Source: Escherichia coli
GTDB taxonomy: Bacteria; Pseudomonadota; Gammaproteobacteria; Enterobacterales; Enterobacteriaceae
Direction: 5' to 3' (one strand)
NCBI RefSeq assembly: GCF_030013205.1
Contig: NZ_CP122648.1
DNA length: 64,000 nt
Position numbers and translations under genes: made by a program. Positions 16,565-52,483 of this stretch are shown piece after piece; the stretch's first letter is position 1; each line of letters opens with the position of its first letter. A model generated the notes under the pieces. It searched no databases, was not told the origin of the DNA, and was given only the letters and a program-made list of their open reading frames with translations.

Positions 16565-16975
16565 ATGTCCAGACCAACTATCATCATTAACGACCTGGAT
16601 GCCGAACGCATCGATATTCTGCTGGAGCAACCCGCCTATGCTGGTTTGCCAATCGCCGACGCGTTAAACGCAGAGTTGGATCGCGCCCAAATGTGTTCGC
16701 CAGAAGAGATGCCACACGACGTGGTGACAATGAACAGCCGGGTTAAATTCCGCAATCTTAGCGATGGCGAAGTGCGTGTGCGCACGCTGGTGTATCCGGC
16801 AAAAATGACCGACAGCAATACTCAGCTTTCCGTTATGGCTCCGGTAGGTGCTGCACTGCTGGGGCTGCGCGTTGGCGATTCCATTCACTGGGAACTTCCG
16901 GGCGGCGTTGCAACCCACCTTGAAGTGCTGGAACTCGAATACCAGCCAGAAGCTGCTGGCGACTACCTGCTTTAA
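16565..16975 (+). CDS. rnk: regulator of nucleoside diphosphate kinase (GreA/GreB-like)
   Basis: 136-aa ORF; matches Rnk. Confidence 0.94.
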
Positions 16976-49352: not shown

Positions 49353-49391
49353 TGCTAACGTCAGATTGTTGACAAAGTGCGCGTAGTTCAT

Positions 49392-49489
49392 GCCGGATGC
49401 GGCGTGAACGCCTTATCCGGCCTACAAAAATCTTGCCAATTCAATATATTGCAGGACCACGTAGGCCTGATAAGCGTAGCGCATCAGGC
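49392..49489. repeat. REP (palindromic unit) elements, BIME-like pair
   Basis: gccggatgcggcgtgaacgccttatccggcctac and the inverted gtaggcctgataagcgtagcgcatcaggc between fepA and entD. Confidence 0.8.
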
Positions 49490-49526: not shown

Positions 49527-50147
49527 ATGAAAACTACGCATACCGCCCTCCCCTTTGCCGGACATACGCTGCATTTTGTTAAGTTCGATCCGGCGAGTTT
49601 TTGTGAGCAGGATTTACTCTGGCTGCCACACTACGCGCAACTGCAACACGCTGGACGTAAACGTAAAACAGAGCATTTAGCCGGACGGATCGCTGCAGTT
49701 TATGCGCTGCGGGAATATGGCTATAAATGTGTGCCCGCAATCGGCGAGCTACGCCAACCTGTGTGGCCTGCGGGGGTATACGGCAGCATTAGTCACTGTG
49801 GGACTACGGCATTAGCCGTGGTATCTCGTCAACCAATTGGCATTGATATCGAAGAGATTTTCTCTGTACAAACCGCAAGAGAATTGACAAACAACATTAT
49901 TACACCAGCAGAACACGAGCGACTCGCAGAATGCGGTTTAACCTTTTCTCTGGCGCTGACACTGGCATTTTCCGCCAAAGAGAGCGCATTTAAGGCATCG
50001 GAGAGACAAACTGATGCAGGATTTCTGGATTATCAGATAATTAGCTTGAATAAACAGCAGATCATCATTCGACTAGAGGATGAGCAGTTTGCTGTGCACT
50101 GGCAGATAAAAGAAAAGATAGTCATAACGCTGTGCCAACACGATTAA
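49527..50147 (+). CDS. entD: enterobactin synthase phosphopantetheinyl transferase
   Basis: 206 aa from internal ATG (MKTTHTALPFAGHTL...); matches EntD. Confidence 0.93.
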   Translation: MKTTHTALPFAGHTLHFVKFDPASFCEQDLLWLPHYAQLQHAGRKRKTEHLAGRIAAVYALREYGYKCVPAIGELRQPVWPAGVYGSISHCGTTALAVVSRQPIGIDIEEIFSVQTARELTNNIITPAEHERLAECGLTFSLALTLAFSAKESAFKASERQTDAGFLDYQIISLNKQQIIIRLEDEQFAVHWQIKEKIVITLCQHD

Positions 50148-50268
50148 TTGACAATACCCGGAGCGATTCGCCCGCAGCCAATGCTGACTGCGGGCGAAAG
50201 TGTAAAGCAGGTGCCTTACTACTCTGACCTGACAACCGGATATGCGGGGATTACTCCCCGCACAACGG

Positions 50269-50421
50269 CTACTTCTTCGGTTCGTAAGCGAGAACAGCCT
50301 TAAACTCAATATTACGTTCCTTCACCGTAAACTCACACAGCGAGTCTCCGACCAGAAGCGTAAATCCCAGCACCGTTAAACACAGCACTATGACTGCCAC
50401 AAGGGCATATTTCGTCAGCAT
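50269..50421 (-). CDS. hokE: Hok-family membrane toxin (HokE-like), copy 1
   Basis: 50 aa [50 protein letters not shown]. Confidence 0.85.
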
Positions 50422-50566
50422 GTTTATATTGCCTCCATGCGAAGAAGGGACTACCATCCGAGTTGTTGAGGTTCGGAGTGGCAGCCCCAGGATTGATAGA
50501 AATATCTCCTGGGGCTTCATCTTTCCAGACCTCAGAGTTAACCTGAAACCGGAAAGCTTCAGGCAC
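50333..50566 (-). CDS. mok-like overlapping reading frame (modulator of hok translation), copy 1
   Basis: 77-codon ORF in a different frame, starting upstream of hok and ending inside it ([16 protein letters not shown]...). Confidence 0.5.
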
Positions 50567-50630
50567 CCGCTGTTATCTTACCCTTCCTTAGCAAAATAAC
50601 TGTTTATTTATACAGCAAGTCCTGTTTCGG
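50560..50630 (+). ncRNA. predicted Sok-like antisense RNA, copy 1 (position inferred)
   Basis: inferred only from hok/sok architecture (antisense to the mok initiation region / hok leader); hairpin agtcctgtttcggact present; no promoter confirmed. Confidence 0.3.
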
Positions 50631-50670
50631 ACTTCTGTTGGCAACACTCGTTATTGCTCGTAAAACGAAA

Positions 50671-51131
50671 TCGCCCGCAGCCATCACTGACCACGGGCGA
50701 AAGTGTAAAGCAGGTGCCTTACCACCCTGACCTGACAACCGGATATGCGGGGATTACTCCCCGCACAACGGCTACTTCTTCGGTTCGTAAGCGAGAACAG
50801 CCTTAAACTCAATATTACGTTCCTTCACCGTAAACTCACACAGCGAGTCTCCGACTAGAAGCGTAAATCCCAGTACCGTCAAACACAGCACTATGACTGC
50901 CACAAGGGCATATTTCGTCAGCATGTTTATATTGCCTCCATGCGAAGAAGGGACTACCATCCAAATTGTCTGGTTTGGAGTGGCAGCCCCAGGGTTGATA
51001 GAAATATCTCCTGGGGCTTCATCTTTCCAGACCTCAGAGTTAACCTGAAACCGGAAAGCTTCAGGCACCCGCCGTTATCTTACCCTTCTTCAGCAAAATA
51101 GCTGTTTATTTATACAGTGAGTCCTGTTTCG
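50671..51131 (-). other. hok/sok-type type I toxin-antitoxin locus, copy 2 (ybdK-proximal)
   Basis: second unit of the tandem repeat; hok coding sequence differs from copy 1 by 3 synonymous substitutions; flanks carry indels. Confidence 0.7.
50772..50924 (-). CDS. hokE: Hok-family membrane toxin (HokE-like), copy 2
   Basis: 50 aa, protein identical to copy 1; the upstream mok-like frame is fused in-frame here (98-codon ORF 50772..51068). Confidence 0.85.
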
Positions 51132-51132
51132 G
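51062..51132 (+). ncRNA. predicted Sok-like antisense RNA, copy 2 (position inferred)
   Basis: inferred from architecture; extended hairpin agtgagtcctgtttcggacttctcact. Confidence 0.3.
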
Positions 51133-51355
51133 ACTTCTCACTCCTCATTTGATCAACTGAAGCTGAACCCGTTTTTTTCTGCATGCCTCAATCGTCAAAA
51201 TTCTTCGCCACCAGTCCGCACTGCCATAACTTGTCATATTGCAAAATGTAGCCAATTTGCTTCAGTCACCATCATCAAAAAAAGAAACATTCCAGAACTT
51301 CCGCATCTCGCCCAGTCGCTCCCACTTCTATACTGAATAGAAAACGCCAACATAA

Positions 51356-52483
<1,128 letters not shown>

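Follow-up and report, generated by a model that had tools for sequence, protein, structure and literature searches.

The window, a stretch of 64,000 nucleotides of Escherichia coli DNA (contig NZ_CP122648.1), carries two hokE genes in tandem. We consider it probable that they form two complete hokE/sokE type I modules, that a 1-nt indel in the Sok-target loop partly insulates one module from the other, and that the 98-codon open reading frame (ORF) over one of the two leaders is incidental.

The initial annotation had read this ORF as a mok-like frame fused to hok. If true, Hok would have gained a new, longer form and mok coupling a natural experiment. The evidence favours a type I toxin-antitoxin locus of the textbook kind that carries a common polymorphism. 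The value of the case is mainly cautionary: ORFs of 98, 83 and 62 aa over hok leaders are alternative gene calls that are already in the databases.

Neither the locus nor its toxin family, antisense RNA or in-frame Mok arrangement is new. Three features may be mildly so: a leader polymorphism with three classes, the lack of a canonical mok start in Escherichia hokE, and the position of the indel hotspot in the recognition tail of Sok. Because of the last two, tandem hokE arrays could be suited to the study of specificity drift in antisense RNAs and of mok-independent activation.

Architecture of the tandem locus

RefSeq annotates fepA, entD, two hokE genes and ybdK. The hokE genes lie on the minus strand in the entD–ybdK interval, and both products are annotated as WP_000956465.1. 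The two tandem units are 502 and 503 bp long and 95–96% identical in a pairwise alignment. The tandem pair is the common state in E. coli: it is present in 3389 of 5426 complete genomes (at least 80% of a 1.4-kb query present). Three-copy arrays also occur among the E. coli genomes that we sampled.

Copy 1 (entD-proximal) contains the following features:
50209..50216, minus strand: fbi element AGGCACCU
50269..50421, minus strand: hokE CDS, 50 aa (ORF listing, RefSeq)
50269..50520, minus strand: ORF from ATG(+49), 83 codons, in frame with hok (ORF listing)
50333..50566, minus strand: GTG ORF, 77 codons, out of frame, stop inside hok (ORF listing)
50422..50568, minus strand: hok mRNA 5' leader, 147 nt, inferred +1 at 50568 (RF01794 match 50413-50568)
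50429-50434 and 50452-50457, plus strand: -35 and -10 of the sok promoter (sequence)
50453..50482, minus strand: Sok-target (sokT) hairpin GCCA.UCCGA / UCGGAUGGU, loop ACCUCAACAAC at 50462-50472 (folding)
50465..50524, plus strand: predicted Sok RNA, 60 nt, 5'-GUUGAGGUUCGGAGUGG... (homology to K-12 sokE)
50600..50615, minus strand: Lex box

Copy 2 (ybdK-proximal) contains:
50671..50700, minus strand: terminator hairpin, followed by a T-run
50712..50719, minus strand: fbi element AGGCACCU, complementary to the mRNA 5' end GGGUGCCU (tac) (MFE fold of the full-length RNA)
50772..50924, minus strand: hokE CDS, 50 aa, Shine-Dalgarno sequence (SD) GGAGG 10 nt upstream (ORF listing, RefSeq)
50772..51068, minus strand: GTG ORF, 98 codons, of which 48 are leader codons and the rest HokE (ORF listing)
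50925..51070, minus strand: hok mRNA 5' leader, 146 nt, inferred +1 at 51070 (GGGUGCC) (RF01794 match 50916-51070)
50932..50960, plus strand: sok promoter TTGCCT, 17-nt spacer, TACCAT, identical in copy 1 and in K-12 (sequence)
50954..51022, minus strand: 22-codon ORF from ATG(+49), SD GAGGU 8 nt upstream, TAG stop 30 nt before hok
50956..50984, minus strand: sokT hairpin GCCA.UCCAAA / UUUGGAUGGU (alignment, folding, covariation)
50958-50960, minus strand: in-frame ATG 12 codons upstream of hok, within the complement of the sok promoter (sequence)
50966-50973, minus strand: 8-nt loop CCAGACAA of the sokT hairpin, carrying the 1-nt deletion (alignment, folding)
50968..51026, plus strand: predicted Sok antisense RNA, 59 nt, 5'-GUCUGGUUUGGAGUGG... 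(homology to K-12 sokE, b4835)
50985..51018, minus strand: ucb / SD hairpin (mok-equivalent GGGG); on the other strand, the Sok terminator stem-loop
51102..51117, minus strand: Lex box CTGTATAAATAAACAG, at -32..-47 of the inferred +1

Each copy encodes a small membrane toxin of the Hok/Gef family (about 50 aa) behind a conserved structured leader. The hok-leader model RF01794, which is named 'sok' but describes the hok mRNA 5' leader on the hok strand, matches both copies over its full length (1-157). The scores are 81.9 bits for copy 1 and 81.7 bits for copy 2 (gathering score 59 bits). In the sequence a cis-antisense Sok can be recognized as a predicted RNA: it has a separate promoter, and its 5' tail is single-stranded and followed by a terminator stem-loop.

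The elements for pairing the two mRNA ends (tac and fbi, GGGUGCCU and AGGCACCU) are present in both copies. The minimum free energy (MFE) fold of copy 2 pairs them; that of copy 1 prefers an adjacent alternative pairing.

Upstream of each leader, the Lex box lies at -32 to -47 of the inferred +1 in both copies, and a TAAGAT hexamer, read by eye, at -12 to -7. HokE has been cited as a Lex-box/SOS gene (PMC2826370). A consensus promoter scan of positions 50100-51250 yielded no sigma-70-like site, hence we assigned the promoters from homology and hand-read hexamers. The hok transcription start is placed by homology to the R1 and K-12 leaders and by the positions of the Lex box and the -10 hexamer; for copy 2, the leader 5' end was set by homology to the K-12 hokB, hokC and hokE matches. 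The ends of Sok are likewise putative and follow K-12 sokE. A literature search on mokE/sokE returned nothing relevant.

From these parts we propose how each module would work. A Lex-box promoter, probably under LexA control, would transcribe a 50-codon hok, equipped with a strong SD of its own, behind a structured leader of some 147 nt; the antisense sok gene would oppose it. The leader would form the pairings of hok mRNAs (tac/ucb, SD/dcb and fbi). The full-length mRNA would be closed by its 5' end GGGUGCCU pairing with AGGCACCU about 75 nt past the stop codon. The Sok 5' tail would then bind the hairpin loop.

The Sok-target hairpin

The leaders of the two copies differ in length by a single alignment gap, GAACCTCAACAACTCGG in copy 1 against AAACC-AGACAATTTGG in copy 2. 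The initial annotation was correct that this 1-nt indel switches the frame. The gap lies in the apical loop of the Sok-target hairpin, and the same DNA encodes the 5' tail of Sok (nt 3-6 of the homology-mapped Sok in copy 2). The 5' end of K-12 sokE maps inside this loop, 8 nt after the -10 hexamer, and the K-12 RNA starts with GUUCGGGUUUGGAGUGG. The predicted Sok RNAs of copy 1, copy 2 and K-12 all fold into a single-stranded tail of about 10-11 nt and a stem-loop. In R1, the 11-nt single-stranded 5' tail of Sok makes the first contact with the loop of the refolded hok mRNA (PMC1635323).

The sequence of the hairpin varies, and its stem is kept. We found nine hairpin variants among 21 copies, with the stem maintained through CCGA/UCGG, CCGAG/CUCGG and CCAAA/UUUGG. 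Three stems (5'-end/ucb, SD/dcb and upper hairpin) are present in the RNAalifold consensus for 61 unique leaders, which come from several genera. In this set, one pair of the upper hairpin covaries (A-U in 28, G-C in 28), as does one pair of the SD/dcb stem (G-C in 22, A-U in 38).

The hairpin is also the most polymorphic 15-nt stretch of the 503-bp unit (π = 0.25), and it is home to 6 of the 10 leader and CDS differences between the window copies (within 31 nt). Diversity in the Sok tail is 0.20, compared to 0.086 at synonymous hok sites and 0.02-0.03 elsewhere in leader and CDS. The tail is therefore about twice as diverse as synonymous sites and about ten times as diverse as the flanking leader. 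The segment that holds the sok promoter and the hok SD has one variable column in 30.

How could such variation be tolerated in a recognition element? Sok is encoded in cis. Hence a loop mutation alters both partners at once: cognate pairing would remain intact, and pairing with the sister copy would become weaker. Predicted duplexes of the 12-nt tail have energies of -21 to -22 kcal/mol for cognate and -8 to -13 kcal/mol for non-cognate pairs. Since cognate pairing is always kept, the loop region would be free to diverge, or may even be selected to. The indel would then belong to a recognition element that drifts or diversifies and gives the two Sok/hok-mRNA pairs partial insulation from each other. 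This effect on specificity is our inference from predicted duplexes.

Alternatively, the loop may be diverse because constraint is relaxed or because recombination has shuffled old alleles, and not because specificity is under selection. None of 14 arrays carries two identical Sok tails, but once related genomes are collapsed to about seven array types this is not significant (P ~0.1, an estimate). Furthermore, about 45 nt of Sok are nearly identical between the copies, and thus cross-repression may still be substantial.

Judged from the predicted RNAs, the likely consequence of the indel is altered recognition between Sok and hok mRNA across the two copies, not a new protein. The general idea that the copies may differ in regulation stands, with the indel in the Sok-target loop; the route through a fused mok is not supported.

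Reading frames and translation starts in the leader

To describe the leader frames we compared 38 hokE copies, drawn from the window and other E. coli genomes (22 in all). Measured between GGGUGCC and the ATG of hok, the leaders fall into three length classes:
146 nt (7 of 38 copies): GTG frame fused to hok, 98 aa; ATG(+49) gives 22 aa
147 nt (16 of 38 copies): GTG frame out of frame, 77 aa; ATG(+49) fused to hok, 83 aa
148 nt (15 of 38 copies): GTG frame stops after 38 codons; ATG(+49) out of frame with an R1-like overlap, 62 aa

Hence all three frame relations occur. They arise from two independent 1-nt indel sites, one in the hairpin loop and one at GGA(C)GAT in the ucb-containing hairpin; the +C allele of the latter occurs exactly in 2383 complete genomes. 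The allele types are found at either array position among the 38 copies, which indicates recombination. PGAP also calls a spurious antisense 'frameshifted' pseudogene at the locus because of the same leader indels.

Hok itself is under purifying selection. Its ORF is intact in all 38 copies, with 12 synonymous and 5 non-synonymous variable sites (pN/pS 0.14). For the overlapping 'mok-like' frame, pN/pS over the hok overlap is 0.85.

In R1, mok starts at nt 116-118, 58 nt upstream of hok and preceded by GAGG. Mutation of this start codon abolishes Hok toxicity, and hok expression needs mok translation at least as far as the hok SD (PMC9841398). In K-12, mokB starts 58 nt and mokC 57 nt upstream of its own hok. 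Their AUGs occupy positions ~96-99 of the leader model, where the 5' arm of the Sok-target hairpin meets the loop. A canonical start of this kind (an SD and a start codon ~57-58 nt upstream of hok, inside the stretch complementary to Sok) was found in none of the 38 E. coli copies and in none of the alleles sampled from other Escherichia species. At that position hokE has CCG or CCA in K-12, in both window copies and in all sampled Escherichia alleles.

Among 50 HokE-type loci of other species, the canonical SD and ATG are absent from 41, in frame with hok in 6 (67 aa) and in frame 2 in 3 (11-18 aa). At the loci of other genera, 1-nt differences in loop length between close relatives flip the frame of the upstream ORF. 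According to a recent survey of Hok, sequence does not allow a reliable assignment of Mok (bioRxiv 10.1101/2025.08.07.668861).

Three candidate routes to activation would be available to an mRNA that has no canonical mok. The strong hok SD may be used directly after refolding. A short upstream ORF (uORF) may be translated from the SD-led ATG(+49). Or translation may begin at an ATG that lies in the hairpin's 3' arm and is complementary to the sok -10 hexamer. Predicted duplexes with the anti-SD favour hok (GGAGG, -9.3 kcal/mol), followed by ATG(+49) (-6.3 kcal/mol) and the ATG at -36 (+0.1 to +0.4 kcal/mol). In a model of the 3'-truncated mRNA, all candidate starts have an unpaired probability of 0.3-0.5, so that accessibility does not separate them. 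The 3'-arm ATG is in frame with hok in Escherichia (62 aa); at 17 loci from other genera, a uORF of 12 codons begins there, ends at the UGA of AUGCUGA and overlaps the hok start.

It is a tentative possibility that Escherichia hokE is gated in a non-R1 way (through the ATG(+49) uORF or the 3'-arm ATG), with the Sok tail and loop under diversifying selection and the two copies mutually orthogonal. According to this idea, the loss of the canonical mok start together with purifying selection on Hok would point to a different translational gate. With such gating, the two common 1-nt indels would switch the outcome of ATG(+49) among the 83-aa fusion, the 22-aa uORF and the 62-aa overlap.

A narrower version is that ATG(+49), with GAGGU 8 nt before it, is the mok equivalent of Escherichia hokE. 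The indel would then matter in the opposite sense to that first proposed: copy 1 would make an 83-aa, MokC-like fusion, and copy 2 a 22-aa uORF that stops 30 nt before hok. Since translation of R1 mok must reach the hok SD at least (PMC9841398), the copy 2 uORF would couple poorly by R1 rules. The 148-nt alleles would give a 62-aa, R1-like out-of-frame mok.

ATG(+49) is the only upstream start with a good SD. None of the 38 E. coli copies lacks it, and other Escherichia species have it too. Annotators often call the 83-aa and 62-aa forms, one of them as 'Regulatory peptide MokC'. However, ATG(+49) and its SD are base-paired in the predicted folds, within the conserved tac/ucb hairpin, and the start lies at the 3' edge of the Sok complementarity. 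Nor is it conserved, as other genera have GACG or GACA in place of GATG. Moreover, E. coli shows its three frame outcomes at roughly equal frequency, so selection on any one of them is disfavoured. We therefore regard this reading as unlikely.

Loss of the canonical mok start could also mean that hokE loci are decaying relics, translationally silent, with indels that are neutral for RNA and protein alike. IS insertions beside hokE are frequent, and a recent preprint, citing Pedersen and Gerdes, relates that chromosomal hok loci did not bring about post-segregational killing and had been suggested to be inactive (bioRxiv 10.1101/2025.08.07.668861). Decay fits poorly with the low pN/pS and unbroken ORF of Hok, with the near-invariant sok promoter and hok SD segment, and with the intact Lex boxes of both copies. 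Compensatory changes preserve the hairpin and the SD/dcb stem, and MG1655 HokE is toxic when overexpressed (bioRxiv 10.1101/2025.08.07.668861). We think it quite improbable that the loci are relics.

The reading of the initial annotation was that the GTG frame (MPEAFRF...) is mok, coupled out of frame in copy 1, and that the product of copy 2 is a Hok extended to 98 aa, or else that the fusion of mok changes the regulation of copy 2. The two ORFs do exist as described. In copy 2 the upstream frame runs into hok as a 98-codon ORF that ends in the full 50-aa HokE. In copy 1 the frame with the same N-terminus comprises 77 codons, is out of frame and ends inside hok. In addition, the copy 1 distance from start to hok ATG has the same remainder (1, modulo 3) as that of R1 mok and mokB (58 nt upstream), and annotation pipelines have called the 98-aa ORF. 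The protein is already deposited from 208 contigs (for example AVS48896.1, with O157:H7/O55:H7 entries).

The position of the GTG speaks strongly against this role. It occupies nt 3-5 of the leader as delimited by RF01794 homology, and in the RF01794 alignments K-12 hokB, hokC and hokE and both window copies all start with GGGUGC at model position 1. In the window copies no SD precedes the GTG. It lies 32 nt downstream of the Lex box, and with TAAGAT and the Lex box just upstream of the nearby inferred +1 there is no room for one. The GTG is placed inside the tac stem and outside the Sok complementarity, which covers +45..+104 only by homology to K-12 sokE.

The frame relation also varies between E. 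coli copies. The GTG ORF reads through the hok SD and start in 146-nt and 147-nt alleles, but in the 15 copies with 148-nt leaders it ends at a TAG 30 nt before hok. Hence we judge it very improbable that the GTG frame is mok, and we infer that the GTG is not used as a start.

As an ORF, the 98-codon frame is not beyond chance expectation. In dinucleotide-preserving shuffles, the 146-nt leader was open throughout and in frame with hok in 10.7% of cases, and some frame was open in 29%. HOK_GEF (PF01848) matches only residues 53-94 of the 98-aa ORF (31.6 bits, cut-off 22). The 48 extra residues match no family, and the 77-aa ORF of copy 1 no Pfam family.

Fusion to hok is moreover not peculiar to copy 2. 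Overlooked at first, copy 1 has its own in-frame fusion from ATG(+49), a start that yields only 22 aa in copy 2, and the ATG at -36 opens a 62-aa ORF in both copies. All of these share frame and stop codon with hok in the manner of MokC (98 aa in copy 2, 83 aa in copy 1, 62 aa in both). The proposed contrast between a mok-coupled copy 1 and an extended toxin from copy 2 therefore does not follow from the evidence; if ATG(+49) matters at all, the in-frame copy would be copy 1. The 98-codon frame is probably a common by-product, with translation improbable, and not a new extended toxin. We consider it incidental because the leader is stop-poor, G+C-rich and structured.

An error of sequencing or assembly, a general risk in tandem repeats, has a negligible chance of explaining the indel and we reject it: the exact 58-nt copy 2 segment recurs in 703 of 5426 complete genomes, positions 50000-51420 are 100% identical in the independent complete genome of E. 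coli CFSAN018748, a second 8-nt loop variant exists (CCCAACAA), and 146-nt leaders also occur in other Escherichia species.

Comparison with known systems

The closest relative of our two proposed modules is K-12 hokE/sokE (b4415/b4835), the orthologous locus by ybdK. It shares the leader (84.4 bits against RF01794), the sok promoter, the hok SD and Hok, with a single amino-acid difference in HokE (V8A). Unlike the window, K-12 has a single copy, which has lost fbi and its 3' end to an IS186 inserted 19 bp beyond the stop codon. Its 147-nt leader carries a third loop variant, CCCGAACAA, and no mokE is annotated.

R1 hok/mok/sok has the same long structured leader with tac/fbi pairing, a ucb hairpin that sequesters the SD, and an SD/dcb stem (PMC9841398). 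It also has a cis-antisense Sok whose single-stranded 5' tail is aimed at a hairpin loop; for hokE, Sok expression is predicted from sequence. In R1, however, the mok AUG (nt 116-118) follows GAGG and is needed for hok translation, whereas hokE has GGGG and no start codon there. Furthermore, hokE is chromosomal and has a Lex box.

An N-terminally extended Hok is an arrangement already annotated in K-12. The upstream ORF is in frame and shares the stop codon with hok in mokC/hokC (16751-16960 and 16751-16903, gef) as well as in mokA/hokA. In contrast to the copy 2 ORF, which starts 144 nt upstream of hok at the transcript 5' end, mokC starts at an SD-preceded AUG 57 nt upstream, in the Sok-target hairpin and under Sok.

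HokE-type loci of Klebsiella, Kluyvera, Enterobacter and Pluralibacter encode Hok proteins that are 74-84% identical, behind the same leader architecture. Here too, whether the upstream ORF is in frame with hok (67 aa, 6 loci) or in frame 2 (11-18 aa, 3 loci) depends on 1-nt differences in the length of the same loop. Unlike Escherichia, which has TCC at this place, these nine loci carry the canonical SD and ATG (GAGGC-N6-7-ATG).

[quoted passage not shown] They belong to another toxin family and use divergent sRNAs of the trans type, and their specificity was established by experiment, whereas that of hokE would follow from predicted pairing. Like hokE, they are type I pairs duplicated in tandem, and the V1 region at the 5' end of the sRNA decides which mRNA is repressed (PMC3919570).

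Probable SOS control and mRNA ends

Both hokE copies carry the same Lex box, CTGTATAAATAAACAG, 32-47 nt 5' of each inferred +1; none is expected by chance.

50600-50615, minus strand: Lex box of copy 1, CTGTATAAATAAACAG
51102-51117, minus strand: Lex box of copy 2, CTGTATAAATAAACAG

Because the boxes lie upstream of the hokE start points, it is probably the two toxin mRNAs, and not the antisense Sok RNAs, that are induced in the SOS response.

The two mRNAs may differ at the other end.

50671-50700, minus strand: 3'-end hairpin of copy 2 followed by a T-run, called terminator-like
50168-50198, minus strand: 3'-end hairpin of copy 1, homologous to that of copy 2

After the copy 1 hairpin the T-run is absent and GAATCGCTCC stands in its place. 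Hence, the two transcripts may have different ends or be processed differently.

Annotated reading frames and a neighboring repeat

The strand opposite the hokE leader has been annotated as protein coding.

50893-51160 in the window, plus strand (2394-2661 in L001): PGAP 'hypothetical protein' pseudogene, antisense across the hokE leader

PGAP flags this pseudogene as 'frameshifted; internal stop', and the frameshift is called because of the same 1-nt indels that alter the length of the hokE leader. Other strains hold an intact 89-aa version (WP_009008364.1). This antisense 'hypothetical protein', read from the Sok strand, seems to be an artefact of annotation. In K-12, the small proteins yncP and ysaE are annotated opposite the 3' parts of hokB (L017) and hokA (L018), respectively. 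Cataloguing of small open reading frames over hok loci is thus under way.

The fepA-entD intergenic region contains a further feature.

49362-49468: Rfam match to ES036 (42.2 bits, over the gathering score)

Sub-threshold matches to naRNA4 and Ysr224 fall on the same interval. Together the three matches probably mark a REP/BIME-type repeat.

hokE in other strains and genera

Two E. coli strains, APEC17 (L075) and 104 (L078), have arrays of three hokE copies, with leaders of 147, 148 and 147 nt and a Sok 5' tail that differs in every copy. In several other E. coli strains (L013-L016, L076) an IS421/IS186-family element or IS150 lies directly 3' of hokE or replaces it. K-12 hokE likewise has an IS element on its 3' side, and this flank appears to be a repeatedly hit IS target.

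Among other Enterobacteriaceae, all 50 listed HokE-type genes encode an N-terminal MLT. Wherever the DNA was checked the gene starts with AUGCUGA, which therefore places a UGA in frame 2 directly over the start. In the region between roughly -32 and +7 of hok, at least 17 of these loci (within L024-L063) have a 12-codon upstream frame whose first codon is the ATG formed by the complement of the sok -10 box and which terminates exactly at this UGA. Such an overlap would be a classic termination-reinitiation layout. In contrast, Escherichia hokE carries a 4-nt insertion that puts the same sok -10-complementary ATG in frame with hok.
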